From Candidatus Woesearchaeota archaeon (GTDB taxonomy: Archaea; Nanobdellota; Nanobdellia; Woesearchaeales; 21-14-0-10-32-9), in assembly GCA_046543095.1 (NCBI GenBank), contig JBKHAC010000002.1, forward strand, positions 2,525 through 66,524: DNA of 64,000 bases. The letters are read 5' to 3'. Shown here in pieces: positions 2,481 through 27,556 of this stretch. The position numbers were made by a program, and so were the translations under genes. Numbering within the stretch: position 1 is the first letter of the stretch; each line of letters begins with the position of its first letter. The notes below the pieces were generated by a model. It was given only the letters and a program-made list of their open reading frames with translations, was not told the DNA's origin and made no database searches.

Positions 2481-3479
2481 CTAATCGTCTTTATTTTTCT
2501 CATCATCAGCTTTCACTTCACCAGATGAAATTTTAGTATCTTTGTTTGAATTATCAGGTTCATCAGATTTCTTTAAATCACTAAGCTGACCCTCAATTTT
2601 CCTAATCTGATCATTCAAATAACCTTGCATATTCAAACCCTTAGCAAACAAAGGATTATCATCCATCAATTTACGAAACGCCTCAGATAACATTTCAGCC
2701 TTATTTAATTTCAAATCAAATTCAAGCTGCAACTCACGCTTTGCATGCTTCAAATTAACATCTAATTTGGAATAACTATCAGATGCCAATTTAATAACTC
2801 TTTTAGCTTTCTCAATATCTTTAGAAAACCCAGTTATACTATCAGATAACTCTTTTTTAGTTACAAGAGCAGGATTTCTCGCTTCAAGCTTAGATAATTT
2901 ACTATTAATTTCTTTAATTTCTAAACCAAAATCATCAAGCTTAATCTCAAACTCATTAAACTCCTTAAACGTTTTCTGCACCTCAATAAACATAGTCTCA
3001 ATTTTATCAGCATGCTGCTCACATACAGCCTCAATTTTCTTCACAGTCATAATTTCGCGCTTTACTTCCTCATTTAATTTAAGAATCTGCTCAGCCCCAC
3101 GAAAAACCTCAATTTGAGCACGGACCTGCTTCAATTGCTCAAATAAAGCCTTCATCATCTCCTCATTACTCTCAATATTCGACCTTAACGCCTCAATTTT
3201 ACCATCAGACTTTTGCAAATCAATAGTTATCTTATCAGGCTTCACACTCTCAACAATATCAACAGCCTTAATAGCTTTAACTTCAATCCCAGAAACATTA
3301 CGATTCATATCATTTAACATACCACGAAGCTCACCTAATTGCTCAGTTAAATTACTGGAACGCTCACTTTCAGCCTTATTCATCTCAGTTAAAGACTCAA
3401 TTTTAGATTTTAAAATAGCAATATCCGCAGTTAACGCAGCATACTCTTTAGTCTCATTTACCTTAGGCTCTTCTTTCAC
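2481..3479 (-). CDS. Coiled-coil (E/K/L-rich) protein with an acidic C-terminal tail; function unknown
   Basis: Long ORF with heptad-like E/K/L periodicity throughout. Confidence 0.5.
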   Translation of the reverse strand: MKEEPKVNETKEYAALTADIAILKSKIESLTEMNKAESERSSNLTEQLGELRGMLNDMNRNVSGIEVKAIKAVDIVESVKPDKITIDLQKSDGKIEALRSNIESNEEMMKALFEQLKQVRAQIEVFRGAEQILKLNEEVKREIMTVKKIEAVCEQHADKIETMFIEVQKTFKEFNEFEIKLDDFGLEIKEINSKLSKLEARNPALVTKKELSDSITGFSKDIEKAKRVIKLASDSYSKLDVNLKHAKRELQLEFDLKLNKAEMLSEAFRKLMDDNPLFAKGLNMQGYLNDQIRKIEGQLSDLKKSDEPDNSNKDTKISSGEVKADDEKNKDD

Positions 3480-4522: not shown

Positions 4523-5359
4523 GTGAATCATTTGAAGAAAAAAATAACAATGCTTTTGATGACATTCATATTATTGTTTGGAGCATATTCAGTACTAGCA
4601 CAAACAACAGTTCCAGAAGCACCATCAACATTTACTGAGGAAGGCTCATCAAGACGAGACTCTGGTTTGTTGCCTGACCGCTCAATAGAAGCTATAGCAG
4701 GAAATATAACCGCACTAAATATGCACGGTAACACAGTTACAAGAACCTGGTTCGGTGTATATGGTAACGTAACAGGAACACTCGTTTTGAGCAATGGAGA
4801 AAACGATGTGATGTATGATTGGTCAGTTGCAAATCCTCGCGGACAAGTATATGCTACAAGAGCGCCTGAATTATCAGAAACAATTCTATGGAATCAAGTT
4901 GATTGCTATAACTACACAATAACTGACTTGGCAAATTATTATACAATCTCAGAATTAAACGCTGATCTTGGAATTAACCCAACACTAGATCAAGATGCAG
5001 TAAACAGAACATTTAGATACGCGGTTCCAGATCCCGTGGAACCATTGATACAACCGCCTGTGGCTCATTACCATAATGGCTTTTTTGTTGGAACAAAGGA
5101 AATTTTAGAAAATACTTGTCCTGCAACATCACTTTATAGCTCAGGTGCAAATCAAAATTGGGATAGATATCAGCAAGTATTATTATATAATGCAGGAGTT
5201 ACAGGAAATTCTAGCCTAATATATACATCAATAATTGAAGATGGTGAAGTCACAGGCTTTGATGGAACAGATATGGACTTTCAAATGTTACTCGGAGAAA
5301 ATGGTCATGATGGTGACACAGATACAACAACATATTATTTTTATGTAGAACTTGAATAG
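4523..5359 (+). CDS. Secreted paralog-family protein (Sec signal peptide, C-terminal TTYYFYVELE). The more likely start is the TTG at 4532 (MKKKITMLLM...).
   Basis: Signal peptide ...FGAYSVLA/QTT. SD CGAGGTG upstream. Conserved blocks shared with 5377, 8037 and 2..364. Confidence 0.6.
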   Translation: MNHLKKKITMLLMTFILLFGAYSVLAQTTVPEAPSTFTEEGSSRRDSGLLPDRSIEAIAGNITALNMHGNTVTRTWFGVYGNVTGTLVLSNGENDVMYDWSVANPRGQVYATRAPELSETILWNQVDCYNYTITDLANYYTISELNADLGINPTLDQDAVNRTFRYAVPDPVEPLIQPPVAHYHNGFFVGTKEILENTCPATSLYSSGANQNWDRYQQVLLYNAGVTGNSSLIYTSIIEDGEVTGFDGTDMDFQMLLGENGHDGDTDTTTYYFYVELE

Positions 5360-5376
5360 ACGAGGTGTTAAGAAAA

Positions 5377-6219
5377 ATGAAATCATTAAAATTAAGCTTA
5401 TTTTTAATAAGTATGCTATTTTTAGCAACAGCTACAAGCGCGTTTGTGGCAGTATCCGGATTTGACCCAACATACGAGGGTAATTTCTCAGATAGTGCTA
5501 ACCAACCAACAGTTATGACGCACGAGAGAGGATTTATACATGTAGTAAACATAGATAAATCACAACAAACTCCAAGATGGAAAGCATATGTCGGAAACAT
5601 CACAGGCGAACTAGCGCTAGGAGATGGAACATACTCTATTTTCAATTGGAATTTAACTACAATAACAGGTGAAATATACGCAACAAGATATAACGGAACA
5701 TTCGCATCATCCCCTCCAAATTTATCCGAGGAGTGGCCACAAGGTGATTCTAGTAACACATTACCAATATGGTCAACGATGGAATGCGCAACACAAGACG
5801 AAATAAATAATGAAACAACATTATTAAATCATAATTATGATTTAGATGTAGATGCACTTAACAGAACCTTCACAACAGGATTTACATTTCAAAACTTCGC
5901 AGTCGCAAGTAGAACTATAGATACATCAACTTGCAGAGGCACTTTTTTAAATTACAACGCAACAAATGATAACTCCGAGCAAGGCGTAGCAGGCTGGCAA
6001 CAAGTAGTACTAACAGATAGAGGAGATGGAATATCATCAGGAGCTGATTATGCACCTGACCTTATGTATGCAGCATTACTAAAAGACAGCGGACTAGGAT
6101 TTAACGGTGAAGTGTATGATTATCAAATCCTTTTACCAGAAAACGGGGATTTATCTGAGCAAAACCCTGACCCAATTCCCTACTACTTTTACATGGAATT
6201 ACTAGGTAGCGTGAACTGA
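5377..6219 (+). CDS. Secreted paralog-family protein, tandem to the CDS at 4523. The ORF track begins at the GTG at 5365; the ATG at 5377 has better SD spacing.
   Basis: Signal peptide MKSLKLSLFLISMLFLATATSA. Motifs HVVNIDKSQ, W.AYVGNITGEL.LGDG, IYATRYNG and C-terminal PYYFYMEL. Confidence 0.6.
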   Translation: MKSLKLSLFLISMLFLATATSAFVAVSGFDPTYEGNFSDSANQPTVMTHERGFIHVVNIDKSQQTPRWKAYVGNITGELALGDGTYSIFNWNLTTITGEIYATRYNGTFASSPPNLSEEWPQGDSSNTLPIWSTMECATQDEINNETTLLNHNYDLDVDALNRTFTTGFTFQNFAVASRTIDTSTCRGTFLNYNATNDNSEQGVAGWQQVVLTDRGDGISSGADYAPDLMYAALLKDSGLGFNGEVYDYQILLPENGDLSEQNPDPIPYYFYMELLGSVN

Positions 6220-6722: not shown

Positions 6723-7718
6723 TTAAGAATTTAAAATTCTAAGCAAATCATCTTTAGATCTAGCTTCTCTGAGCTTATTTGCTAACTCATTATTGTGAAA
6801 AACATGATCAACCCAATTCGCAAAATCATTACGATGATCATTTACATGATGATAAAAAACCGCATCACTCATACTCTTAAGCTTTTCTTTAAGTTCACGA
6901 ATACTTGAAATAGTTTCACCATTTGATAGATTAAAATGCTTATTTTCATCAAGTTTATCTTCAACAAAATCAGACATCAATTTTTTTAATTCAGAAAGCT
7001 CACTTTTCAATTTACTCTCGCTTGTATCAACTTCTTTTTGAAGCAATTTAAGCTCACTTTTTTTAGTATGCCACATGTTTTCAAGAACTTTTAAAGATTC
7101 AATTTTACTATGTATTATTTGATTTAATTCATCATGATGAATGATGAAAGGGGTGCCACTATCTTCATTATCGTGAAAATCATTCAATGTATCGAATAAA
7201 TCTTTCTCAATTAAAGATTTCAATTTATTCTTTTTCTTTAAATCATCATCATTATCTTTATCAAGCAAAACTTGAAGTCTGGAGAAAAAACTATGATTAT
7301 CAACAGAGGGGGTGCTAGGTGTTAGACTTGGCTTATCATGAGTTGTTACTGCACTTGATTGAGATTGAGGTGTTTGCGCTGGCACGTTAGTTTGTTGACT
7401 TGCGGGTTCTGTTTTAGGCGCTTGCTGCAAGGGTTGTTTTACTGCTTCTTGTTCTTGCGGTTTTTGAACCGGTTCTTGAGCTTGAGGCGTTTGAGTAGAT
7501 ACATTGGTTTGTTGGCTTGCAGGCTCTGGATTAGGTGCTTGCTGCACTGGTTGCTCTACAGGTGATTCTTTTGCAGATTCAGGCTTGTTTAAACTAGGCA
7601 GACTATCAGGCACAGCAGTGACGCTAGGTGCGGGCTCTTCTTGATGTGGAAGTGCAGGTAAATGCTCGGGCACAGATTTACTTTCTGATTTTTTAGAACC
7701 TAATTTAAGTAATACCAA
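6723..7718 (-). CDS. Pro/Gln-rich low-complexity protein with a conserved C-terminal DFANWVDHV domain, paralogous to the C-terminus of the CDS at 10551
   Basis: C-terminal VFYHHVNDHRNDFANWVDHVFHNNELANKLR parallels FTKHVTEEKDDFANWIDHVLGLADIAQKLR in the 10551 protein. Contains an internal ~126-bp tandem DNA repeat encoding QQAP..EPASQQTNV.(T/A)QTPQ.Q. Confidence 0.55.
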   Translation of the reverse strand: MVLLKLGSKKSESKSVPEHLPALPHQEEPAPSVTAVPDSLPSLNKPESAKESPVEQPVQQAPNPEPASQQTNVSTQTPQAQEPVQKPQEQEAVKQPLQQAPKTEPASQQTNVPAQTPQSQSSAVTTHDKPSLTPSTPSVDNHSFFSRLQVLLDKDNDDDLKKKNKLKSLIEKDLFDTLNDFHDNEDSGTPFIIHHDELNQIIHSKIESLKVLENMWHTKKSELKLLQKEVDTSESKLKSELSELKKLMSDFVEDKLDENKHFNLSNGETISSIRELKEKLKSMSDAVFYHHVNDHRNDFANWVDHVFHNNELANKLREARSKDDLLRILNS

Positions 7719-8036: not shown

Positions 8037-8762
8037 TTAAATTAATTCAATATAAAAATAATATTCTTCACTCACACTCAAATTCTGATTTTCAGGCAAT
8101 ATTAACTGAAAATCATAAGTGTTATTATTAAAACCAATAGCACCATTTTGCAAGACACTCGAAAAAATTAAATTTGAATTATTATCTGATAAAATAACTT
8201 CTTCAAAATCCCTTGATGATGTGTTGTTATAAACATTTAACGCCGCAGATTTGCAAGAATCGGTTTCAATATAATTAAAAAAAGTGTAAAATGATTCGTG
8301 TTCGCTATCGCTAAATGTTCTATTAACTGAGTACTCAATTGAGGGCTCAAAACCAAGATAACTATCTTCTAAAATAATTTCAGAATTATTCGCGCATCTA
8401 ATATTATTCCAATCTAATGTGTTGCTTCGAGACGCATAAATTTTACCGCGTGTATTGTCCATTATCCAATCAAATAAACTAGTAGAACCATCTCCTAATT
8501 TAAGCCTGCCCGAAATATTACCAACATAACCTCTCCAAAACGGATTAGGCTGAGATGCCTCAATGTTTACTACATGAATATGTCCTCCGCTACTAATAAG
8601 CTCAACTCCCGGCTCGAGAGGAATAGAATAATTATCAACATACGTTATGTTTCCACCAGATGGATAAAAAGGAGAAGAGAACACATTATTAGATAAAACT
8701 AATATTGATGAAAAAAATAAAAGTGCAAAAATTAATTTCACTAAACTATTTGATTTTATCAT
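8037..8762 (-). CDS. Secreted paralog-family protein (fourth member)
   Basis: Signal peptide. Motifs HIHVVNIEASQ, W.GYVGNISGRL.LGDG, IYASRSN and C-terminal EYYFYIELI. Confidence 0.6.
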   Translation of the reverse strand: MIKSNSLVKLIFALLFFSSILVLSNNVFSSPFYPSGGNITYVDNYSIPLEPGVELISSGGHIHVVNIEASQPNPFWRGYVGNISGRLKLGDGSTSLFDWIMDNTRGKIYASRSNTLDWNNIRCANNSEIILEDSYLGFEPSIEYSVNRTFSDSEHESFYTFFNYIETDSCKSAALNVYNNTSSRDFEEVILSDNNSNLIFSSVLQNGAIGFNNNTYDFQLILPENQNLSVSEEYYFYIELI

Positions 8763-9133
8763 TTAAAATCCCTCCGCTTAGTAAAAGTAATCCAAATCGT
8801 CTGATAAGACCTTGAGAGAATCTTAGAAATATCATTAATGCTTAGAAGTTTATCTTGATATAAGTACAAAATAATATTTCCAAGAATATTGCCTTCTTTG
8901 TGTATTGCACTTAAAGGAATTTTAATTTTATGATTTTTTTTAAACTGCTTAGGATGCTTTTTTTTCGCTTTACTATACGTAATAGAGATAGTAGATTTAT
9001 CCCTTCTTGTTAAGGACGCAATTTTAGTTATGGTAAAAGACTTATTTTCTTTTAAATATTTAACCACGCTCTCAAAACAACCAAGCTCTTTTTTAAAAAT
9101 AGATACAGGGATTAAAGTTTCTTGTTCGAGCAT
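8759..9133 (-). CDS. Small HTH DNA-binding protein, translationally coupled (4-nt overlap) to the secreted-family gene at 8037
   Basis: Predicted HTH segments FTITKIASLTRRDKSTISI and LSINDISKILSRSYQTIWI. Its stop overlaps the 8762 start (ATGA). Confidence 0.45.
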   Translation of the reverse strand: MLEQETLIPVSIFKKELGCFESVVKYLKENKSFTITKIASLTRRDKSTISITYSKAKKKHPKQFKKNHKIKIPLSAIHKEGNILGNIILYLYQDKLLSINDISKILSRSYQTIWITFTKRRDFK

Positions 9134-9488: not shown

Positions 9489-9788
9489 ATGATAAAAAAA
9501 CGAGTTAATGTTCAAGCATTAGAAATGTTTATTATGTCTTTAATGGTTTTATTTGGCCTAGGAGCTATAGCAATATTATATTATGCACTACAATACCCAT
9601 ATTTAATAGATTTATCATTAATAGTTATCGAGATGCTAATAATATTAATTATAGCAGTGCTCGGACTTGCATATTTAATAATAAGAATATGGGAGCGACA
9701 CATTGTGCCCTATTCAATGGTTTCTGCAGATGAAAAGAAGAAAATAGATTCAGACGATAAAAAAAGAGCAGAAAAAATTAAAAATTAA
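9489..9788 (+). CDS. Small membrane protein (2 TM) with a K/D-rich tail
   Basis: Hydrophobic helices. SD AAAGAGGTG upstream. Confidence 0.4.
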   Translation: MIKKRVNVQALEMFIMSLMVLFGLGAIAILYYALQYPYLIDLSLIVIEMLIILIIAVLGLAYLIIRIWERHIVPYSMVSADEKKKIDSDDKKRAEKIKN

Positions 9789-9849
9789 AAATTAAAAATT
9801 AAAAAAATTGAAAAGTTTTAAAAATTAAAAAATAAGGTTTTATAACAAA

Positions 9850-10440
9850 ATGTTCAAACAAAAAAAAGCAGTTATGGGCGTAGGAATGCTACTAATATTT
9901 GTAGCGAGTATAGTCTCAGCAGCAATAGCTGCAGCACTACTTATAACATCAACAAATTTACTACAAGATAGAGCAGCTAAAGTACAACAAGACGCAACAG
10001 AAGGACTTATTAGTGGACTTGATGTAGTTTCAATATATGCAACAGGAAATATGACAACAGAGATAATATACGAATTTGAATTCATCACAAGGCTTAGAGC
10101 AGGATCAAGACCTGCACAACTAGACTCCTTAGGCCTTACATTTATACAAGGTGAAAACACAGCAACAGGATACATGAACACATCACTTATAGGCGATAAC
10201 TGCACATTTGAAAATCTTCAAGCTGAAACAGAATTTTGCGTGAATAAAATATTCGGCGATGAAAACACAGTACTTGAAAGTGGCGATATGGCAATTATAA
10301 AATACAAATTATCCAACGAATCCGCACTACCAACAGACACTCCCTTCGATATAATATTCCAACTTAGAGTCGGCTCACCTTTAATTATGGCCTTGCAAAC
10401 GCCTGATATGGTACTTAGCAGTAAGATAAGACTTAGATAA
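9850..10440 (+). CDS. flaB: Archaellin (FlaB-family) with a class III signal peptide
   Basis: N-terminus KKAVMG/VGMLLIFVASIVSAAIAAALLI followed by the archaellin-type conserved block LQDRAAKVQQDATEGLISGLDVVSIYATG. Confidence 0.75.
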   Translation: MFKQKKAVMGVGMLLIFVASIVSAAIAAALLITSTNLLQDRAAKVQQDATEGLISGLDVVSIYATGNMTTEIIYEFEFITRLRAGSRPAQLDSLGLTFIQGENTATGYMNTSLIGDNCTFENLQAETEFCVNKIFGDENTVLESGDMAIIKYKLSNESALPTDTPFDIIFQLRVGSPLIMALQTPDMVLSSKIRLR

Positions 10441-10550
10441 ATATAAACTTAATTTACTAAATAGTTTAATGAACGATTTAAAGAATAACAAACTAATATT
10501 TTAATTATTTTTAATAAAATAAAAAAAACAAAAAAAAGAGGCAAATAGTA

Positions 10551-11786
10551 TTGGGACTACTATCATTTTTAAAGAAAAAACCTAAAGAAGAAAAAAAAGA
10601 AGGGGATAACACGAATCAACTGATTGAAGATAGTTCTAAAACTCAAAATACAACACTCAAACCAGAAGAGACTAATTCTATAAGTGCAAACACGGAAAAT
10701 AATACTCAAAGTACCCAAAGTGTTCAAAATAAAGATGAACAAAATAATCAAAATACTCAAGAAGATGACTCCAACGAAGATTTCGACAAACTCGTCACAC
10801 AAATAATAACAAAACTTGAAGATATGAAAACAGGCGCAGACACAAAACTAGAAGAACTCGAGACAAAAATACAAGAACTAAACAACACAAACAAAAAAGA
10901 AGAACTAGATGCAATAAAAGAAAAAGTTGAGAAACTAGAAAACAGCCTAAAAGAATTCTCATCAATATATGAGGCAATAAGCTCACAATACAACCCACTC
11001 TTAGACGGATTCGACGAGAGAGATAAAAAACAAAACCTAAACAAAGAAGAAAAACAACAAGAAACTGCGCGAAGCATAGATGCGTCAGAAATTCAACAAT
11101 CGCCTGAAATTGAACAGAAAAACGTTACTGAACAAATAAAAGAACAAAATACGGAAATGACACAGAGCCTAAACAAACAAAATGAAGAACAACAAGTTCA
11201 AGAAGCTCAGCAAACCCAACAAGCTCAACAGTCCCAAGAAATAATCACACAAACACAAGAACACACAAAAGAACAAATACAAGAAAAGGTACAAGAAAAG
11301 GCACAAGAACAAATAGAAGAAAAGGTACAAGATAGCACCTCACAAACACAAGAAACAAATTCAGATTATAATTTAAAATACACAATATCAACACAATCAG
11401 ATCTCGACGATGACAATAACACAGAACAAATACTAGTATCAAGACACGAGAATAAAAACCAAAGCGCAGATAGAGAATCAATACTAAAGAAAAAAATAAT
11501 AGAATACATGCTTAAAGAAAAAAGAATACACTTAGAGAGATTATCAAGAACAGTAGACGGCGATAAAAAATTCTTTTTAGATAATAATAAAGCAATAGCA
11601 AATTTAATTGATTTAGTAAATATAATAAAAGACGACGAACAATCATTCACAAAACACGTAACAGAAGAAAAAGATGATTTTGCAAACTGGATAGACCACG
11701 TACTCGGACTTGCAGATATCGCACAAAAACTTCGAGGAATAAAAAACAGAGAAGAATACACGCTAACACTTCTATCTGAAATATGA
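10551..11786 (+). CDS. Gln/Glu-rich coiled-coil protein with a conserved C-terminal DFANWIDHV domain; immediately downstream of an archaellin gene
   Basis: Low-complexity N-terminus with a Q/E coiled coil. The C-terminus shares a ~40-aa domain with the CDS at 6723. Confidence 0.55.
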   Translation: MGLLSFLKKKPKEEKKEGDNTNQLIEDSSKTQNTTLKPEETNSISANTENNTQSTQSVQNKDEQNNQNTQEDDSNEDFDKLVTQIITKLEDMKTGADTKLEELETKIQELNNTNKKEELDAIKEKVEKLENSLKEFSSIYEAISSQYNPLLDGFDERDKKQNLNKEEKQQETARSIDASEIQQSPEIEQKNVTEQIKEQNTEMTQSLNKQNEEQQVQEAQQTQQAQQSQEIITQTQEHTKEQIQEKVQEKAQEQIEEKVQDSTSQTQETNSDYNLKYTISTQSDLDDDNNTEQILVSRHENKNQSADRESILKKKIIEYMLKEKRIHLERLSRTVDGDKKFFLDNNKAIANLIDLVNIIKDDEQSFTKHVTEEKDDFANWIDHVLGLADIAQKLRGIKNREEYTLTLLSEI

Positions 11787-12000: not shown

Positions 12001-12813
12001 TCAAGATTTATAATTATTTTTTAAATATGCGGCGACGCTTGGAAATAAATGTGTACTTCTATTATTCAATTGAATGGTAAGATTAGGATTGTCATTAAAA
12101 TTAGTTTTTAAACTGCCAGAATACTGTGAATTCGCCTGTAATTCTTTAAGCATTATACCTTCAAGAAGTAGATTCTTTAAAAAAATATGAGAAATTAAAG
12201 GCTTTAAACCTGATTCTTGTCGCTCCATAAAATCAGGCAAATTATTTGCTTCTTCTTTTTCAATATGTGATTGTCTATTTAAACCAGTATTTTCAAAATC
12301 AATTATTGTGTCTTTTGTGTATAATTTAAATCCTTCATTTTTAAGAGAAGCCGTATTTCTTACATACTCTTTATATATTTTTAAATCTATATCTAAATTT
12401 TTTAAATCTTCAATATTGCTTTTATTAGGTATGGTTGCTATATATATGTGGTCTAATTCACACTTGAGTTTATTTTCATCATGATTATAATGTGAAAAAA
12501 TCATAATGTCTTTTTTATCACCATCAAAAAAGGATAATTTACTCGAATAAAACGGCAGGACGCGTTCTTCTTTACTTCTTATAGCTTCAATAGTTAATGT
12601 TGCTTTTGCAGTTTTATCTTTTAAGAAGTCATTGTATGCATTTAAAGAAATATTTTGTTTAAAATAATTATTAATGGAGTTGGTGTTCAAATCGTTTTCA
12701 ATTATGTCAATAGGTGACTTAATCATACTTAGACATAATCCTCCAGCTAGTAGGGTTGTTTTTAGTAGAAAATCTCTTCTCGACATTTCTTTACTTGAGC
12801 TCGTCATAAGCAC
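12001..12813 (-). CDS. Tat-secreted protein of unknown function
   Basis: Twin-arginine motif SRRDFLLKTTLLAGGLCLS at the N-terminus. Confidence 0.5.
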   Translation of the reverse strand: MLMTSSSKEMSRRDFLLKTTLLAGGLCLSMIKSPIDIIENDLNTNSINNYFKQNISLNAYNDFLKDKTAKATLTIEAIRSKEERVLPFYSSKLSFFDGDKKDIMIFSHYNHDENKLKCELDHIYIATIPNKSNIEDLKNLDIDLKIYKEYVRNTASLKNEGFKLYTKDTIIDFENTGLNRQSHIEKEEANNLPDFMERQESGLKPLISHIFLKNLLLEGIMLKELQANSQYSGSLKTNFNDNPNLTIQLNNRSTHLFPSVAAYLKNNYKS

Positions 12814-12891: not shown

Positions 12892-14568
12892 CTACCAAAT
12901 CGTACTCATATCAGGAAGAACCATATCAACAACAGAAGGAATAGTCCAATAAAGCAAAGCAATAATCCAAATCATAATAATTAAATTAATGATGGATGAA
13001 TAATTAGACCCACCATCAATAATCTTCAAAATCCACGAAGACGTAAAAGCATGAATTATAAGCATAACCATAATAAGAACAAGAGCCACACCAAAATTAA
13101 TCTCCTGATTCATAGGCATAATAGTCTGCGCAAAATCAACAGTCATCTCATCATCAATATTCGTCGTAGAAAAAAGCTGAGACATCTTCTCAGAAATCCT
13201 AAACGTAATAAAAATAGTTAAAGACACACCAATAGTAATACCATAAAAAACACCAGTGAGACCCTGCGCGAGCTGAGCCCTAAGCTTCCTTAAAGAAAGC
13301 AAATGCTGAACATTATTACTAACAATCTCACCAATCTTTTCAGCATTACCACCAAGATAAATAGACTCAGAGAAAATCTTACTAAAATTATTAACCAAGT
13401 TACTACCAGAATCAACCGCGTAATGATACCAAGACTTAAACTTATCAGTACCAAGCCTCAAACGCCTATAAAGATTAACACTCATATCATTAATAACACC
13501 AAAATCATGCATCTGAGTAGATTTTAAAGACGAAATAACGCCCCCATTACGAACCTCAATAGCAGACCCCAAAATCCTCGCATAAACAGGAAACTGAACA
13601 TCACGCTTACGCACAATCTCTTCCTCACGAACAGCAAGAAACCCAGGATATAAAAGCGGAAGCGAACCTAAAGCCATAACAGTAATAAACGATAAAGAAG
13701 TCAAAAATAATAAACCAACAAAAAAAACACCACTAATAATCACAGCAAATTTAAACGCCTGCTCAATTTTTAACTGACCTAAACTTTTATGCGCCAAATC
13801 ATGAAAAATTTGATCACGAGGAATAAAACCTTTCACTGCAAAAATAATCACAACATCCATAACAACTAAACCAACCAAAGCATAAATGAGCAAAACATTA
13901 ACAGGCAAAGCAATTAACAAAGGCGCAAGCAAAATAGTACTCACAAGAAACGCAAAAGAAACCGAGAGCGCCATAAACAATTCTTGAATCATCTTAATAA
14001 TCTCAAGAGATTTTTTATATTCAACAGAATAATCATCAAGCACAGCACCCTGCTCATCATACAAAAAAGTATCAAGCTCCTCACCAAAATCCATGACAAC
14101 AGCGAACCTATCAAGAAAATCACCAAGAATACGAGAAGGAGTCCTCGAACCCATCAAACGACAAGAATTAACAAAACCCATATTCCAATCTTTAGACAAA
14201 TAAATAACCTTCTCAAACGTCTTACTAATCTCACCAAAAACCTTTTTCTCAGCAATCTTCTTAAATAACGCATGACGAGAAATCTTCATAGTCGCAATAG
14301 TACCTGCATAAGTAATAAAAAAATGCAAATTCTCATTAATATTTTGTTTAACAGCAGAATACTTAATTAAAGGATAACCTATAAGTCCACCCATAGTTAA
14401 TAAAATTAAAAAAATACTAAACACAAAACCAACAGGAACAATAAAAGGAATAATTAAAGAAATTAAAACAACACTACTCAAAATAGGCAAAACTAACTTC
14501 AACAAATAATCATTCAAATTCGAATAACCCACAAGTAAAATTACTTTATCAATTTTTTTAGTATTCAT
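12892..14568 (-). CDS. flaJ: Archaellum assembly membrane protein FlaJ (TadC/GspF-like)
   Basis: Polytopic membrane protein of 558 aa immediately downstream of flaI. Typical FlaJ N-terminal TM pair and cytoplasmic domains. Confidence 0.8.
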   Translation of the reverse strand: MNTKKIDKVILLVGYSNLNDYLLKLVLPILSSVVLISLIIPFIVPVGFVFSIFLILLTMGGLIGYPLIKYSAVKQNINENLHFFITYAGTIATMKISRHALFKKIAEKKVFGEISKTFEKVIYLSKDWNMGFVNSCRLMGSRTPSRILGDFLDRFAVVMDFGEELDTFLYDEQGAVLDDYSVEYKKSLEIIKMIQELFMALSVSFAFLVSTILLAPLLIALPVNVLLIYALVGLVVMDVVIIFAVKGFIPRDQIFHDLAHKSLGQLKIEQAFKFAVIISGVFFVGLLFLTSLSFITVMALGSLPLLYPGFLAVREEEIVRKRDVQFPVYARILGSAIEVRNGGVISSLKSTQMHDFGVINDMSVNLYRRLRLGTDKFKSWYHYAVDSGSNLVNNFSKIFSESIYLGGNAEKIGEIVSNNVQHLLSLRKLRAQLAQGLTGVFYGITIGVSLTIFITFRISEKMSQLFSTTNIDDEMTVDFAQTIMPMNQEINFGVALVLIMVMLIIHAFTSSWILKIIDGGSNYSSIINLIIMIWIIALLYWTIPSVVDMVLPDMSTIW

Positions 14569-14608: not shown

Positions 14609-16255
14609 TTATAATTTAAACGGCAATGTTGCCTCACCACCATGATAATAATTACGAAGAATAGACCAAACATCATAATAATTAAAAATCTTCTCCTCAA
14701 CCATACGCTTTAAAATCTTAGTACGCTTATCCAATTCAGCATAAATCTCACGAGGATCTTTAAGCCCAAGAGTCTTCGCAATTTTCTGCTCAAGAATATA
14801 ACTATTAAAAAGACCCCTAAAAATTAATTTATCATTAACACTATTCCACGTAAAAACCTCACGCGTAATAACTTTATTTGCAGGAGCATAATAACGCTCA
14901 AGCTCACTTAAAGATAAAACACGACGAACAAATTTATTACCACGATAAACAGCTTGCTGAATCAAACACAAATTCAAGTTATCAATAAAAGCAATAGGAA
15001 CATTAATAGGATCACCCGTCAAACGCTGAATCATAGTATTAACATCACCAGCGTGAAAAGTAGATATAACAGGATGCCCAGTCTGCATCGCCTGAAACGC
15101 AATAGCACCCTCCTCACCACGAATCTCACCCACAATAATATAATTAGGACGACTACGAAGAGCAGCAATAAGCAAATCCAAATAACCAACATCAGACTCC
15201 TTACCAGCCTCACGAGTAACCAAATGCTGCCAAATATCATGAGGCATAGTAACCTCGGGAGTATTCTCAACAGTAAACACCTTCGCAGTAGGCTTAATAA
15301 AAGCAGCACACGCATTAAGCGTAGTCGTTTTACCAGACGCAGTTTCTCCACAAACAAACAAATTCATACCATTTTCAAGCGAGAGCCAAATGTACGCTGC
15401 AAGATCAGCACTAAGAGTATTCCAATTAATAATCTGAGTAATAGAGACAGGAACATCAGAAAACTTACGAATAGTAAAACTAGAACCCTCAAGACTAATC
15501 TCACGACCAAAAATAAAATTCGCACGAGAACCATCAGGCATAATCGCATCAACAACAGGATGACGATCACTAGTTGGACGCTCAACACGCTCAGTAGTAT
15601 CAATAACATACTTATCAAGCTCCTTATCTGACTTAAACTCAATAGTTGTATAAATCATACCAAACACTTTATGAATAGACGTTACAACACCAACACCAGT
15701 ACAATGAATATCCTCCAAATTAGGATCACGCAAAAGAGGCTCAAGCTTACCATAACCAACACGATTCCTAACCAAGAAATATTTAATTTTCTCATATTGC
15801 AAAGACGTAAGCCTAGTTTTAGATGAAATACTAAACAAACCCTTACTCGAACTAGCACCACCAGACTCAGAAACTTCAACAACGTCATCAAGAAGCTTCA
15901 ACAAAACAGGACCAATTTCAGTAACTTTATCAGGCACAGGCTCTTTATACGCAATATCAATTAAACGCTCAACACACTCATCATAAAGCTTCTGCTCATC
16001 ATCAGTTAAAAACGGCTCAATTACGGTATAAATGGTGTCTTCAGCCGGCTTCTTTCTCAAATGAATAAAAATAGGATCACCAACAGGATAAATAAGATTA
16101 GGAAAATCCATCTTACCCATATCACGAGTAAGCGCAGGCACAAAAGTAGGCATATCCTCTTTAGAAAAACCCTCAACATACAACCTAAGATGCTCAAACT
16201 TCTTTTTAGCCTCTTCAAAATCCTTAGTAATTTCAACTTCCTTTTTCATTTTCAA
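14609..16255 (-). CDS. flaI: Archaellum ATPase FlaI (type II/IV secretion ATPase family)
   Basis: Walker A VCGETASGKTTTLNA, Walker B/Asp box and His box. 548 aa. Confidence 0.9.
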   Translation of the reverse strand: MKMKKEVEITKDFEEAKKKFEHLRLYVEGFSKEDMPTFVPALTRDMGKMDFPNLIYPVGDPIFIHLRKKPAEDTIYTVIEPFLTDDEQKLYDECVERLIDIAYKEPVPDKVTEIGPVLLKLLDDVVEVSESGGASSSKGLFSISSKTRLTSLQYEKIKYFLVRNRVGYGKLEPLLRDPNLEDIHCTGVGVVTSIHKVFGMIYTTIEFKSDKELDKYVIDTTERVERPTSDRHPVVDAIMPDGSRANFIFGREISLEGSSFTIRKFSDVPVSITQIINWNTLSADLAAYIWLSLENGMNLFVCGETASGKTTTLNACAAFIKPTAKVFTVENTPEVTMPHDIWQHLVTREAGKESDVGYLDLLIAALRSRPNYIIVGEIRGEEGAIAFQAMQTGHPVISTFHAGDVNTMIQRLTGDPINVPIAFIDNLNLCLIQQAVYRGNKFVRRVLSLSELERYYAPANKVITREVFTWNSVNDKLIFRGLFNSYILEQKIAKTLGLKDPREIYAELDKRTKILKRMVEEKIFNYYDVWSILRNYYHGGEATLPFKL

Positions 16256-16944
16256 CCAGATAAATCCACAACAATACCAATACCCGCGCGAACCTTAAAC
16301 GGCAACTCACGCTCAACATCATTAATCGCACCAAGAAACCGCTTCACCTGCAAAATATTCAAAATATTACCATACTGCTCACGCTCAAACATAACAAGAT
16401 GAACCTCAACAGTATTTTGCAAATATTTCAAAATCTCTCTATTAATAATTTCAGGCTCTACACAAAAAATAACAGTCTTACCCGAACTTGTAAGCTTTTT
16501 AAAAGCACTAATGAACTCAAAAGTCTCACTTAAATTAGACTCATTTTTCAAAACAAAATCATTAAGCGCATCAATAACAATAACCTCAGATTCCAATAAT
16601 TTTTTAGATAAAAAAATCTTCTTAATCATATCAGGCTCAAAATTAACACGACCAAGCAAAGGAAAAGTCGTAATAAATTTTAACTGACCTGCAAGAAACT
16701 CTTTACGAATATCATACTTTAAAGAATCCATTTGAGAGAGAAAACTTTGAACAGAGAGCTCAGAGCTAACATAAGAAATACTAACATTATTTTTAATCGC
16801 GCCATAAACAAAACGCTGAGCCAAAATAGACTTACCAAGACCAGCCGGACCCTCAATTAAAACAAGACTATTCTTAGGAATGCCCCCGCCAAGTTTTAAA
16901 TGAAGCTCATCACCCTCAAGCTCAATACTATAAATTTTATCCAA
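16252..16944 (-). CDS. flaH: Archaellum protein FlaH (RecA/KaiC-like ATPase)
   Basis: Walker A EGPAGLGKSILAQRF. 230 aa. 4-nt overlap with the flaI start. Confidence 0.8.
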   Translation of the reverse strand: MDKIYSIELEGDELHLKLGGGIPKNSLVLIEGPAGLGKSILAQRFVYGAIKNNVSISYVSSELSVQSFLSQMDSLKYDIRKEFLAGQLKFITTFPLLGRVNFEPDMIKKIFLSKKLLESEVIVIDALNDFVLKNESNLSETFEFISAFKKLTSSGKTVIFCVEPEIINREILKYLQNTVEVHLVMFEREQYGNILNILQVKRFLGAINDVERELPFKVRAGIGIVVDLSG

Positions 16945-17018: not shown

Positions 17019-17477
17019 TTAAGTCGTGACAATTACACTATCGCCAACACCATTAGGTGCAACTATTCTCGCTTGATTTTTTGTGGAACTTACAAAAAAA
17101 TCAGGGACAACAACTAAAATAACTTCGCTAGGATCCCACGAAGTAGGATTACCAACACTAGTGTCAGATTCAACCGAAATCGAAAAATCATCACGCGAAA
17201 TACGCTGATTAGATAAAAAAACCTCAACTCTATCAAGCATTAAAAGCGTCTTACCAGTATTCGCTGCAGTAATCGTCGTCGTGTTCGTTTCGTTATCAAA
17301 AAAAGCAGAGGTAATAGATATGTCCGTTCTAAGCTCATCACTCAAACGATCTTTTTGAACAGCCATCGCAGCAGTAGTCTCACTAGCAAAATTACTCATA
17401 TAAAAAATAACACTAGCAGATATAGTCACAATCGCGATAAAAAACAACATGTTTGCTGCAACAGTTCCAAAACCCAT
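17019..17477 (-). CDS. flaG: Archaellum FlaG/FlaF-like protein (N-terminal TM plus beta domain)
   Basis: Position upstream of flaH. N-terminal hydrophobic helix MLFFIAIVTISASVIFY. About 150 aa. Confidence 0.55.
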   Translation of the reverse strand: MGFGTVAANMLFFIAIVTISASVIFYMSNFASETTAAMAVQKDRLSDELRTDISITSAFFDNETNTTTITAANTGKTLLMLDRVEVFLSNQRISRDDFSISVESDTSVGNPTSWDPSEVILVVVPDFFVSSTKNQARIVAPNGVGDSVIVTT

Positions 17478-17852: not shown

Positions 17853-18437
17853 ATGAAAAATTATAATAAAAAAGCAGAAGTAGCTATGGGCACGCTAATC
17901 ATATTTATCGCAATGATACTGATTGCAGCAGTCGCAGCAGCTGTTTTAATTTCATCAATAGGAAGTATTCAATCTAAAGCACTAGAGACTGGGTCTGCAA
18001 CAAGACAAGAAATAGGAACAAATGTAAATGTGGTCGAAATATACGGACCGAAAGATACAAATGAATCAACAATAACAAACATAAGCATGGTTGTACGCCT
18101 CGCAGCAGGATCAGACCCAATTAGACTTAGTGATTTACTTCTAACTATTGGCGCTGAGAATTTCACAAACGAATTCACATATAATTCAACAGACCATAAT
18201 AAAGGAGGAACTGCTGGCGCATCATTTAACGTATCATACCTTCTTGAAGGAAATAACAACCAACCTGATTATCTAGTTAAAGGAGACGTTGCAAGATTCG
18301 ATTTAGAACTTGAATATGCAGTAGGAGAAGATGCGAGTTTAAGATTTACACTTATACCAAAAATAGGAACTCCCGCAATAGTGTTTGCAACAACACCTAA
18401 TGCAATAGCAAATTCAAGAGAAACTATTTTCCCATAA
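17853..18437 (+). CDS. flaB: Archaellin (FlaB-family), tandem copy 1
   Basis: KKAEVAMG/TLIIFIAMILIAAVAAAVLISS class III signal/archaellin N-terminus. Divergent from flaGHIJ. Confidence 0.85.
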   Translation: MKNYNKKAEVAMGTLIIFIAMILIAAVAAAVLISSIGSIQSKALETGSATRQEIGTNVNVVEIYGPKDTNESTITNISMVVRLAAGSDPIRLSDLLLTIGAENFTNEFTYNSTDHNKGGTAGASFNVSYLLEGNNNQPDYLVKGDVARFDLELEYAVGEDASLRFTLIPKIGTPAIVFATTPNAIANSRETIFP

Positions 18438-18653: not shown

Positions 18654-19226
18654 ATGAGAAAAAATAATAAAAAAGGAGAAGTTGCTATGGGCACATTAAT
18701 TATATTCATAGCAATGATACTGATTGCAGCAGTCGCAGCAGCAGTTTTAATATCTTCCATAGGAAGTATTCAATCTAAAGCACTAGAGACTGGGTCTGCA
18801 ACAAGACAAGAAATAGGAACAAACATCAACACAGTAGAAATCTACGGATTTAAAGATGGTGATGATGCTACAATGACTAACTTTAGCATGGTTACAAGAC
18901 TTGCAGCAGGATCAGACCCTGTAAGACTTGGAGATTTATTATTAACAGTTGGAACAGAATCATTTACTGATGAGTATACATACAACTCAACAAATTTGAG
19001 TGCGGGCACCACATTTAATGCATCTTACTTGCTTAAAGGTGCAAACAATCAAAATGGTTATATAGTTAAAGGTGACGTTGTGAGACTTGATTTTATTTTA
19101 AGTGATACAATCGGCGAAGATGCAACAATGAGATTTACAATGATTCCAAAAATTGGAACTCCAGCAGTTGTATTTGCATCAACACCAACAACTATTGCGA
19201 ACTCTAGAGAAACAGTTTTCCCATAA
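18654..19226 (+). CDS. flaB: Archaellin (FlaB-family), tandem copy 2
   Basis: Same N-terminus as 17853. About 110 nt of 5' coding sequence is nearly identical between the two copies. Confidence 0.85.
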   Translation: MRKNNKKGEVAMGTLIIFIAMILIAAVAAAVLISSIGSIQSKALETGSATRQEIGTNINTVEIYGFKDGDDATMTNFSMVTRLAAGSDPVRLGDLLLTVGTESFTDEYTYNSTNLSAGTTFNASYLLKGANNQNGYIVKGDVVRLDFILSDTIGEDATMRFTMIPKIGTPAVVFASTPTTIANSRETVFP

Positions 19227-24661: not shown

Positions 24662-27556
24662 TTAAAATAAAGGCAAAGTGCCTTTAGATTTATAAGGATC
24701 AATCCCAGTTAATGCACGAATATATTTTTGATTAGCTTTCCAAAACGCCGGAGGCCTACTATAAATTTCATCAAGAAATTTATTCTGCATATCTTTATGA
24801 TCCCCCAAATTATCTAAAAAATAATTAAACATACGAAAAATCAAGTCATCATTTTTAGATTTTGGCTCTTTACGATTTAAATAAACATTAAAATTATCAA
24901 TCCTACCAATAAGCCCTCTATCTTTAAAATTAACAGCATCAACCACGCCAAGACCAAAATTCAAACCAGTAAATTCACGAACATAAAGACCTTCAGTTTT
25001 AGCAACTAAACCAACACCCAAATACCTAATATGATCAGCAATAATATTATTAATATCGAGCATAGTATAATCAAAAGGAATCAACCCTCGACGAACAATT
25101 TTTCTGCCGCATTTATATTCTGCGCTAAAAATATAATTAGTCCTAGATAATTCAAAATCAGAAGACCCACCCAGATTATCAGAAAAATAAACATCCTCAA
25201 AAACATCACCCTCAACATTAAAACTTTTAAAAACATCCTCTACCCTGTAACGCTTACCAAATTCTAAGCCTGCCAAATCCATAAAATTTTTAATTTTATC
25301 AATCGCAACATGCAAAAAAGAATGATGCTTTGCAAGCAAATCATACTTCTCAACAAAATTAGAACTTTCAAGCATCCTCTCATGAATTAACTTCATGGAA
25401 TGATTATTTTTAATAATATCAATACCAGCATTAATAATTACGCCCGGAAAAACAAGCTCACCTGAAATAATTCCTTCAGTTTGTTTTTCACGTTTAAACA
25501 AAGAATAAATAATCTCATCAGGACTAAGCCTATCTTCAAGCTTTTCAAGATTATGCCGCAGGCTAAATTCATGCCTGAGCTTATATGTACCAAGACGCAT
25601 AAAATAATCACGAGAACCCATATCATAAAAATTTTTAACAGGATTATTATTAAAAACAGAAGGCAAAGGCTTATTTGATGCAATAGACTCAAGCACAGCA
25701 TTTTTTAAAAATAAATCCTTTACAACTCTACTTTTCACACCATCTTCAATAGTATAATCAATAATTTTCCAAATTAAATCAGGATTGCCTGAATTAACAT
25801 ATTCTTCCATTAAATTATAATCTAAAGATTTAGAAGAATTTGCAAAAGTTGCAAGCTTAAAATCTTTCAAAATAGGAATTCTATTTTCAACATACTTTTT
25901 AGTGTCAAGAATTTTTTTTGAACTTAAAGTCCAAAGATTCTTAGAATTATTTTTCTGTTTATATTGTTTAATTTTATTTTCAACACTATCAGAAATAATT
26001 CCTTGCCTATTTAAAGCAGAATCATTATTAAATTTAATTAAATGCTTTTGATCAAATTCCTCAAAATTATGACCAATTATATATTCATACTTCATAGAAT
26101 CAAAATTAAGCAAACCAATAAGATCAACCTCATCATCTGCAAAAACAAGCTCAACATTAGAATTAGTTAAAGAATTACGTTTTGAAAGATTATCTAAATA
26201 AATTGATTTTACATCATCATTTAACCAAGCATCCTTCGTCATATAAATCTTATTTTCAACCTCACTTTCAAGAACAGCCATAAAAACCCTACCAGATATG
26301 TCTCTTGAAGATTTATCGTAACCTGTAACTTCAATATCAATAACCGCAGAATTTTTTAAATAAAAATTAAAAGCACAATTAACAGCGCCTTCAAGAGACG
26401 ACACAGGCTTTTCACTTACAAAATGAGACAAAGCAGGAACTTTATTATTAATTTGACTTAAAAGAGTTTTCTTAGGATTAAACAACATATGTAACGGAAA
26501 AAAATCCCTGAGCTGACTAGTCGGACTATTCAAATTTAAAGGATCAAAAAGCTCCTCACGCGCACGCCTCAACTTAACATTTTTATCATCGTTTGATTTG
26601 ATTAAATCACCTAATGGTTTTAAACCACGATACTTCGTTTCACCAATTAAAATATCCTCACTTAGACTTTTCATAAAACTAATATTATTATTTGCAGTCA
26701 ATCTAACACAATACTTCACATCAAATTTACTTCTCCGTTTATGAACAACACCAAATTGATCAACATGATTTTTAAAATTACTCACTTCTTTTATTTTATT
26801 AAGATACTCGGATGCAGTTTTCTCAGAATCAAATTCAGGACCCTCATATATATTAATTCTAAACAAAGAAGAATCAAGCTCTTTTAATAAAGACTCCACA
26901 CATTTAACCTCGACAAATTTTCTTTTATAATTAACAGAAATATCGTCTTCAAAAACACCTCTTTCTTTAAGAGACTCAAAAAGATAATCTTTTTTAGAAG
27001 CTAATTCATCAAAATCAGGAATAATTTCAGTTCTCGCTAAAAACCTTTTTTTCGAATTACGAATAAAAATTTGTTTTTTTTTATCTTCATCCAAAAAAAA
27101 TTCTAAATTATGCCTATCTTCTCGATTACCACGATGCCAAATAAGAACAGTTTCACTGCCTTCACGATAAAAAGTACTATCATCATATTCATTTGAGAAC
27201 ACATTTTTACTACCGTACTTTTTTAATTCAAAAGAACCGTCAACGGACTCTCGAATCTTAGATAAAAGCTCACTTGGAGATTTAAAACCATATTTTTTCC
27301 AATCAATCTCAATGCTAGGCGTTATGTGATCCCACACATCCTCTTTTTCAAATAACGAAAAAGTTTCAGAATCATAATATCTAATTATAACTTCATTACC
27401 TTTATTAGCCTTAGGTAAAACTTCCAAAATTCTATATTTGTCCAATTTATCCTCAAGACCAGACTTATTAACTTTAGATAAACTATTTTTGAGTTCTTGA
27501 GCAGTATTATTAATTGAATTTTGCTTTGACATAAAAAAAAGGTAATTAAAAAACAT
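24662..27556 (-). CDS. Large (964 aa) protein with family-B-polymerase-like DEDDy 3'-5' exonuclease motifs. Polymerase motifs are not recognisable.
   Basis: Exo I AVIDIEVTGYD, Exo II YIIGHNFEEFDQKHL (cf. archaeal PolB ITYNGDNFDFAYL), Exo III IIDYTIEDGV (cf. YSMEDAKV), with PolB-like spacing. GKRYRV resembles the KxY motif. No SLYPS or DTD motifs. Confidence 0.4.
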   Translation of the reverse strand: MFFNYLFFMSKQNSINNTAQELKNSLSKVNKSGLEDKLDKYRILEVLPKANKGNEVIIRYYDSETFSLFEKEDVWDHITPSIEIDWKKYGFKSPSELLSKIRESVDGSFELKKYGSKNVFSNEYDDSTFYREGSETVLIWHRGNREDRHNLEFFLDEDKKKQIFIRNSKKRFLARTEIIPDFDELASKKDYLFESLKERGVFEDDISVNYKRKFVEVKCVESLLKELDSSLFRINIYEGPEFDSEKTASEYLNKIKEVSNFKNHVDQFGVVHKRRSKFDVKYCVRLTANNNISFMKSLSEDILIGETKYRGLKPLGDLIKSNDDKNVKLRRAREELFDPLNLNSPTSQLRDFFPLHMLFNPKKTLLSQINNKVPALSHFVSEKPVSSLEGAVNCAFNFYLKNSAVIDIEVTGYDKSSRDISGRVFMAVLESEVENKIYMTKDAWLNDDVKSIYLDNLSKRNSLTNSNVELVFADDEVDLIGLLNFDSMKYEYIIGHNFEEFDQKHLIKFNNDSALNRQGIISDSVENKIKQYKQKNNSKNLWTLSSKKILDTKKYVENRIPILKDFKLATFANSSKSLDYNLMEEYVNSGNPDLIWKIIDYTIEDGVKSRVVKDLFLKNAVLESIASNKPLPSVFNNNPVKNFYDMGSRDYFMRLGTYKLRHEFSLRHNLEKLEDRLSPDEIIYSLFKREKQTEGIISGELVFPGVIINAGIDIIKNNHSMKLIHERMLESSNFVEKYDLLAKHHSFLHVAIDKIKNFMDLAGLEFGKRYRVEDVFKSFNVEGDVFEDVYFSDNLGGSSDFELSRTNYIFSAEYKCGRKIVRRGLIPFDYTMLDINNIIADHIRYLGVGLVAKTEGLYVREFTGLNFGLGVVDAVNFKDRGLIGRIDNFNVYLNRKEPKSKNDDLIFRMFNYFLDNLGDHKDMQNKFLDEIYSRPPAFWKANQKYIRALTGIDPYKSKGTLPLF

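Follow-up and report, generated by a model that had tools for sequence, protein, structure and literature searches.

A Woesearchaeota archaellum locus encodes a probable ArlC/ArlD-slot protein that ends in a DUF5752-type repeat

The window, which is the whole 64,000-nucleotide stretch of Candidatus Woesearchaeota archaeon DNA analysed in this study, is AT-rich (G+C of approximately 31%) and contains a genuine archaellum locus, recognized by the NCBIfam and PF01917 matches of its arlF/G, arlH, arlI, arlJ, and archaellin genes. The nearest related loci carry the labels Woesearchaeota or Nanoarchaeota, which suggests a DPANN archaeon of this type. Our subjects were two genes of the window whose products share a C-terminal domain. 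X1 (10551..11786, + strand) encodes 411 amino acids (aa) and X2 (6723..7718, - strand) 331 aa; both start with TTG, preceded by the Shine-Dalgarno sequence AGAGG in X1 and GAGGTG in X2. The NCBI gene calls (GCA_964462285.1, contig CAYWYM010000012.1) give identical 411-aa and 331-aa products.

The motor genes of the locus are on the minus strand. They are arlJ (12892..14568; NCBIfam ArlJ/FlaJ, 421.9 bits, curated cut-off 550), arlI (14609..16255; NCBIfam FlaI, 707.6 bits, cut-off 550), arlH (16252..16944; NCBIfam ArlH, 203.3 bits, cut-off 215), and an arlF/G-type stator gene (17019..17477; NCBIfam ArlF, 64 bits, and ArlG, 43 bits, cut-offs 110; PF01917, 53 bits). The curated NCBIfam cut-off was passed by arlI only, and arlJ, arlH, and arlF/G were assigned from sub-threshold matches. 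Two archaellin genes are on the plus strand at 17853..18437 and 18654..19226 (PF01917, 92.1 and 84.3 bits, respectively). A third, weaker archaellin-family gene, which is ArlB1-like, lies at 9850..10440 (+; PF01917, 56.9 bits, cut-off 29.5), and X1 is located 110 bp downstream of it. The PF01917 match of this gene bears out the earlier statement of the sequence-only reading that X1 directly follows an archaellin gene. The distance from X1 to arlJ, which is on the opposite strand, is 1.1 kb. No che genes were noticed among the approximately 35 open reading frames (ORFs) of the window that were scanned for families.

The C-termini of X1 and X2 aligned over 74 residues with 32% identity (BLASTP, E=7e-11), while the rest of the two proteins gave no BLASTP alignment. 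The common C-terminal domain and the lack of relatedness over most of the length had both been read correctly from the sequence; the length of the domain had not, being approximately 75 aa instead of approximately 40. The domain, hereafter DOM, occupies residues 335-407 of X1 (FTKHV...DDFANWIDHV...AQKLR; 11553..11771, +; 76 bits with the domain hidden Markov model [HMM]) and residues 256-330 of X2 (6729..6953, -; 104.7 bits). DFANW was present at two places only, X1 and X2, in a six-frame motif scan of the 64 kb, and no other ORF of the window was matched by the domain HMM. Neither C-terminus gave a match when used as a query in word-indexed homology searches, and a search of this kind with the X1-type alignment returned P0151 as its sole match. 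An exhaustive search with a two-sequence profile of the C-termini retrieved 4,341 cluster representatives at E<=1e-3 and 1,539 at E<=1e-10. Because this profile retrieves 4,341 representatives, a compositional artefact was rejected, and the similarity between X1 and X2 is, as judged by profile searching, true homology.

DOM is a DUF5752-type repeat. PF19027 (DUF5752) was matched by 61 of the 66 DOM copies taken from the profile search. The whole X2 protein scored 23.9 bits against PF19027, above the gathering score of 23, and its C-terminal fragment alone scored 30.7 bits; X1 scored 17.3 bits (E=0.003). A 66-sequence DOM profile compared with solved structures gave one match, PDB 4CSO (OrfY of Thermoproteus tenax; E=1.3e-8), and aligned both NDF(A/S)RW repeats of 4CSO. 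These matches argue against an unrelated novel domain, one of the two options that the sequence-only reading had offered. Individual DOM copies aligned to approximately positions 9-88 or 125-205 of the 208-position PF19027 model. Since they match either half of the model, DUF5752/OrfY is, in terms of profile alignment, made up of two tandem units, of which X1 and X2 each carry one. The link between DOM and OrfY comes from sequence profiles, not from structure. No paper mentioning DUF5752 or OrfY was found in literature searches, and the only hint at what OrfY does is its entry name, 4CSO having been deposited in the PDB as 'ORFY protein, transcription factor'.

The consensus of DOM is ..YF.L.NG..I..L.EL...L..MDD.TF.HHVN..KNDFA.WI..V..D..LA.KL...K.K.E.I..LE., in which the W is conserved in 98% of copies, followed by L, N, F, D, and H at 88-95% (N 92%, D 89%, F 89%, H 88%). 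The repeat is acidic on average, with a mean net charge of -2.2 and a negative charge in 69% of copies. An AlphaFold2 (AF2) model of X1 residues 325-411, built from a 3-sequence alignment, predicted a beta-hairpin followed by four helices (predicted local distance difference test [pLDDT] 82; predicted template modelling score [pTM] 0.74).

X1 consists of a short N-terminal motif, a FlaC_arch coiled coil, a linker, and one DUF5752-type repeat. The FlaC_arch (PF05377) match covers residues 99-149 (10845..10997, +; Pfam, 23.5 bits, E=7e-5, cut-off 27.8) and ends in IYEAISSQYNPLL, and a FlaC HMM built in this study matched residues 80-153 with 112 bits. Residues ~154-324 (11010..11522, +) form a low-complexity Q/E/N/K-rich linker, recognized by sequence inspection, with no family match and presumably disordered; its composition is 14% E, 11% K, 11% Q, and 9% N. 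The previous description of X1 as a Q/E coiled coil was therefore correct in the coiled coil, which is of the FlaC_arch type (~80-153), and needs amending in that the Q/E/N-rich part is the low-complexity linker that follows. No transmembrane helix was found in X1, as a simple hydrophobicity scan gave no 19-residue hydrophobic stretch. The N-terminus is short, hydrophobic, and Lys-flanked. Compared with a background of 0.30+-0.16, the N-terminal motif had a hydrophobic moment of 0.39-0.45 in X2 and X1 and of 0.43-0.70 in relatives; such Lys-flanked hydrophobic N-termini (MGLLSFLKKK / MVKK.I.GLL.KK) might form an amphipathic membrane-binding helix.

The same layout was found among the 150 best DOM matches in P0076, P0091, and P0099, which have a coiled coil, a Q-rich linker, and 1-2 DOM copies. 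Their coiled coil ends in (L/I)YE.(I/V)(S/T).QYNP(F/L)L, and the YE..S.QYNP motif is present in X1. FlaC_arch scores were 36-41 bits for these three proteins (cut-off 27.8) and 37-51 bits for seven more X1-like proteins from L008, L014, L044, L055, L056, L070, and L072, so that in total ten X1-related proteins scored above the cut-off, at 36-51 bits. The membership of X1 itself in FlaC_arch and PF19027 is taken from profile searches together with these related proteins.

We scanned one genome per GTDB species for the X1-type architecture. The scan returned 69 loci, which were annotated with the DOM HMM (224 copies), the FlaC HMM, and the Arl proteins of the window. Adjacent arl genes were present at 11/11 loci with a FlaC+DOM gene from other genomes or metagenomes (L003, a metagenome contig, and L008, L014, L033, L034, L044, L056, L069, L070, L071, and L072; mostly Woesearchaeota), a count that is not an unbiased test of linkage, the FlaC motif having been one of the two scan patterns. 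What the 11/11 count shows is that FlaC-motif proteins of these lineages carry DOM. Arl genes were found within 10 kb at 0 of the approximately 55 loci with DOM in other architectures. A Fisher test on linkage used 12 vs 0, counting the split locus L055, and has the same pattern-choice bias.

The usual gene order was an archaellin-like gene, the X1-like gene, and then arlF/G-arlH-arlI-arlJ. An archaellin-like gene of the 9850..10440 type was directly upstream of the X1-like gene at 8 of the 11 loci, and also at L055 (counterparts, 81-92 bits). The exceptions were L003, with no archaellin-like gene; L070 and L071, with upstream ORFs unrelated to archaellins; and L056, where the upstream region was not settled. 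The X1-like gene was followed by arlF(/G)-arlH-arlI-arlJ at L014, L055, L056, L070, and L071; a 198-aa opposite-strand ORF intervened between the X1-like gene and arlF/G at L014, and the other four were direct. In other genomes, the FlaC_arch-linker-DOM architecture occurs within archaellum loci only, in the slot of the euryarchaeal arlC/D/E genes.

Several further features of these loci were observed. L055, a Woesearchaeota locus, splits the architecture into a FlaC_arch-only gene with a Q-rich tail (9785..10525) and then a gene encoding a coiled coil and DOM with a weak FlaC match (10542..11255), a split in the same slot that recalls ArlC and ArlD being encoded by separate genes. The archaellin-like partner of X1 is a paralogue in its own right. 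Its counterparts (L008, L014, L033, L034, L044, L055, L069, and L072) encode 313-327 aa and, compared with PF01917, contain a large insertion, whereas the window gene encodes 196 aa; the paralogue stays paired with the X1-like gene even where both sit apart from arlF-J. The arlI homologue of L070 (10155..13655) encodes 1,166 aa, approximately 2x the usual length, and an intein or other insertion is possible. L033, L034, L072, and many others are labelled 'uncultured Methanosarcinales', yet their arl and X1-like genes are as Woesearchaeota-like as those of the window (ArlI, 526-788 bits); the taxonomic label of these 'binchicken' metagenome-assembled genomes (MAGs) appears doubtful.

The sequence-only reading had also suggested that the shared domain is a divergent FlaD/E-like domain. 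PF04659 (ArlD/E) gave no match to the X1 and X2 C-termini at E<=10 and none to eight X1-like proteins at E<=1, and it was absent from the 25 families listed for the 66 DOM copies. With 61 of these 66 copies matching PF19027, the suggestion did not hold. That reading had tied its proposal to a FlaD/E match and to motility linkage in other genomes. The FlaD/E match was absent, and 55 of the 69 genome loci had no motility link; the X1-type subfamily was strictly motility-linked.

DOM is a promiscuous cytoplasmic domain with stand-alone forms in glycogen operons. Stand-alone DOM proteins of 87-230 aa were encoded 0-400 bp from a GH57 gene at 25 of the 69 genome loci (L010, L017, L026, L029, L032, L043, L065, and 18 more). 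These operons were arranged as a starch/glycogen-synthase-type glycosyltransferase (GT5), GH57, DOM, and then GH15, glycogen synthase, or debranching enzyme (GDE), often with DOM as a soluble copy plus a tail-anchored copy. The gene content was confirmed with Pfam for L010, L017, and L029, and the loci span DPANN archaea, Candidate Phyla Radiation (CPR) bacteria, and an Altiarchaeales MAG. No glycogen genes were found in the window. Two or more tandem DOM copies occurred in 66 of 150 representatives, and single-copy DOM genes were adjacent to one another at L012, L021, L024, L025, L028, L037, L053, and L059. DOM was also fused to CheW, to the linker of 2-oxoacid dehydrogenase E2, to KaiC-like ATPases, and to the C-terminal half of transketolase (examples are P0139, P0065, P0006/P0028/P0056/P0060/P0150, and L011 8968..10056); in P0065, it lies in the E2 inter-domain linker next to E3_binding. 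Proteins of approximately 1,300 aa combine an ectodomain at the N-terminus with a transmembrane segment and a HerA/FtsK-like ATPase, and carry two DOM copies at the cytoplasmic C-terminal end. Such giant proteins were seen at L007, L015, L016, L030, L049, L054, and L068 and in P0021, P0033, and P0040, followed by a 200-260-aa repeat protein, and the two make up a recurrent DPANN gene pair.

X2 belongs to a different, non-motility DPANN family that shares only DOM with X1. An HMM specific to the GFFS region assigned 37 of 150 representatives to this family, the layout of which is an MVKK.I.GLL.KK N-terminus, at least one (V/I)PDELPxL motif, low complexity, a GFFS...LE..W..QK coiled coil, and usually two DOM copies. 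By comparison of N-termini, residues 1-24 of X2 (7647..7718, -) contain MVLLKLGSKK and then VPEHLPALP. Its helical or coiled-coil 'SFFS...LKVLENMWHTKK' region at residues 143-255 (6954..7292, -) scored 85.9 bits with the GFFS-region HMM, so that VPEHLPALP, HSFFS, and LKVLENMWHTKK are all present; X2 has one DOM copy instead of the usual two, as does P0121. X2-type genes adjoin secreted 'S241-like' genes at L015, L073, L077, L079, L081, L082, and L083, and L077 and L081 additionally have a helix-turn-helix (HTH) gene like that of the window. The window contains these conserved neighbours as the HTH gene (8759..9133, -), a secreted 'S241' gene (8037..8762, -), and two S241 paralogues (4523..5359 and 5365..6219, +). 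No arl genes were found beside X2-type genes elsewhere, and the nearness of X2 to the archaellum genes of the window looks incidental. The three S241-like paralogues have a signal peptide and a conserved C-terminal YYFY.EL and gave no Pfam or NCBIfam match. S241-like proteins are weakly similar to the ectodomain of the ~1,300-aa DOM-tailed proteins, and the AF2 model of the paralogues had a pLDDT of 33.

Three other genes of the window were recorded. Just downstream of arlJ, 12001..12813 (-) encodes a 270-aa protein with a twin-arginine-like signal (SRRDFLLKTTLLAGG) and no family match, which is conserved on contig L002. A 332-aa coiled-coil protein (2481..3479, -) and a 964-aa protein (24662..27556, -) had no Pfam match at E<=1e-4.

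Taken together, we consider it probable that X1 is a cytoplasmic accessory subunit in the ArlC/ArlD slot of a Woesearchaeota-type (DPANN) archaellum, in which a DUF5752 repeat stands in for the ArlD/E domain and most likely acts as a pairing or docking module, and that X2 is separate. X1 is assigned to this DPANN slot because its architecture sits in archaellum loci and PF04659 was found in none. The earlier placement of X1 among accessory proteins of the flaC/D/E position is upheld by its FlaC_arch segment, by the 36-51 bits of the related proteins, and by the archaellar nature of every such locus. Oligomerisation through the FlaC-type coiled coil would seat X1 in the cytoplasmic ring that surrounds ArlH/ArlI, in the way proposed for ArlCDE and ArlX. 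DOM would be presented by the flexible linker as an exchangeable input or docking end, in place of the CheF-binding part of euryarchaeal ArlD/E. Two DOM copies could be brought together by a coiled-coil dimer, or one DOM could pair with another repeat-bearing protein. Pairing or docking is favoured because two units in tandem make up the known fold, multiple copies are present in 66 of 150 representatives, and single-copy genes often form adjacent pairs.

Several observations weigh against this account. X1 itself is below the cut-off for both of its families, at 23.5 bits against 27.8 for FlaC_arch and 17.3 bits against 23 for PF19027. A Foldseek search of the AF2 DOM model against the PDB gave no match with E<2.7 and did not retrieve 4CSO, the model having been made from 3 sequences. 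In the window, X1 and arlB1 are outside the arlF-J operon and converge on it from the other side. The absence of ArlD/E and CheF was judged on loci and contigs, not on whole genomes, and the linkage count has the pattern-choice bias noted above. Finally, the placement of DOM in glycogen operons (25/69 loci) and the conserved H, N, D, and W fit ligand binding equally well. We infer that the biochemical role of DOM is either partner docking or ligand sensing, and sensing is almost as plausible as pairing.

A sensing role leads to another explanation, in which DOM senses a small ligand or alpha-glucan, and X1 couples the motor to the carbon-storage or metabolic state independently of chemotaxis, replacing the CheF-ArlD/E route. 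We regard this explanation as rather unlikely. The stand-alone repeats 0-400 bp from GH57 at 25/69 loci of DPANN, CPR, and Altiarchaeales suggest it, as do the fusions to transketolase, pyruvate dehydrogenase (PDH) E2, CheW, and KaiC-like ATPases; the near-invariant polar and aromatic positions (H 88%, N 92%, D 89%, F 89%, W 98%) and the common tandem pairs would suit a sensor module, as in CBS or ACT. However, no ligand is known, the window is without glycogen genes, and the same features suit a protein-docking module. A metabolic sensor would also be a less obvious fit for large surface proteins, whose cytoplasmic tails carry the repeat as well. Alternatively, the shared domain could be a very divergent ArlD/E (PF04659). 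The operon position would agree with this, as would the ArlD-like layout, in which the N-terminus varies and a small C-terminal domain is conserved; ArlD of Mc. voltae is described in the literature as yielding 52- and 15-kDa products. However, the failure of PF04659 to match the two C-termini (E<=10), the eight X1-like proteins (E<=1), or the 66 copies, the significant matches to PF19027 and 4CSO instead, and the occurrence of DOM mostly outside motility contexts, bacteria included, make it very improbable.

It is similarly improbable that DOM is a DNA-binding or transcription-factor domain and that X1 and X2 are regulators. The PDB name of 4CSO and the HTH genes near X2-type genes point in that direction; however, general DNA binding is disfavoured by the predominantly acidic character of the repeat (mean net charge of -2.2, with 69% of copies negative). 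Moreover, DOM copies gave no match to HTH or other DNA-binding families, the fusion partners of the repeat are membrane-protein tails, ATPases, and enzymes, and X1 has the structural ArlC coiled coil. The least likely explanation, which we would hardly expect to be correct, is that X1 lies beside the archaellin gene by chance and has no archaellum role, the FlaC match being a generic coiled-coil artefact. The X1 FlaC_arch score is indeed sub-threshold, and coiled coils draw spurious matches, but ten relatives are above the Pfam cut-off with the specific YE..S.QYNP motif, and the gene order is kept in 11 loci from different MAGs.

A wider and quite speculative possibility, to which we give little weight, is that the switch or scaffold of the Woesearchaeota-type archaellum is an ArlC coil plus a DUF5752 repeat, with the repeat as a shared docking or sensing currency that wires motility and surface machines to carbon storage. 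If true, the archaellum motor of ultra-small, chemotaxis-poor cells would have an input route that has so far gone unrecognised. X1 as an ArlC/ArlD-slot subunit offers a concrete candidate for the ArlCDE/ArlX equivalent of Woesearchaeota-type archaella, and implies that what is conserved is the coiled coil of ArlC, whereas the output or input domain can be exchanged. The DUF5752 repeat recurs reproducibly in glycogen operons, in archaellum loci, and in surface-protein/ATPase loci, and these three genomic contexts make its function experimentally approachable.

Comparison with known proteins places the repeat and the protein in turn. PF19027/OrfY resembles X1 and X2 in having an NDFA.W-centred repeat of approximately 75 aa, with significant profile matches, and, like DOM, has stand-alone members beside alpha-glucan genes. 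It differs in being approximately 200 aa with two repeats, whereas in X1 and X2 one repeat ends a long multi-part protein of 411 or 331 aa; X1 and X2 carry the repeat unit, not the whole DUF5752 family architecture. Peripheral-subunit-binding domains (E3_binding of 2-oxoacid dehydrogenase E2) are likewise small helical modules on long flexible linkers, and may be compared with DOM as an analogy of layout only.

According to reviews, the cytoplasmic ring contacting ArlH is formed by ArlCDE in Euryarchaeota or ArlX in Crenarchaeota (PMC8978795, PMC10117864). In these accounts CheF signals to ArlCDE, and no counterpart is named for other lineages (PMC8978795, PMC10117864, bioRxiv 10.64898/2026.04.22.720090). 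No description of a DPANN ArlC-DUF5752 protein was found in our literature search. In Crenarchaeota the same operon slot holds ArlX, which like X1 is one coiled-coil protein specific to its lineage and is proposed to form the cytoplasmic scaffold ring that encloses ArlH/ArlI; unlike X1, it has a transmembrane helix at its N-terminus. X1 differs from euryarchaeal ArlC/D/E in its DUF5752-type C-terminal repeat instead of PF04659, in its DPANN lineage, and in that no CheF or chemotaxis link was seen on the loci, and one X1-like gene (two in L055) stands in place of the three arlC/D/E genes. In common with X1, euryarchaeal ArlC, ArlD, and ArlCE have the FlaC_arch coiled coil with the YE..S.QYNP motif and no transmembrane helix, and in ArlD, too, a middle part that is variable or of low complexity is combined with a small globular domain at the C-terminus. 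Their genes, like the X1-like genes, occupy the slot between an archaellin gene and arlF/G-H-I-J.

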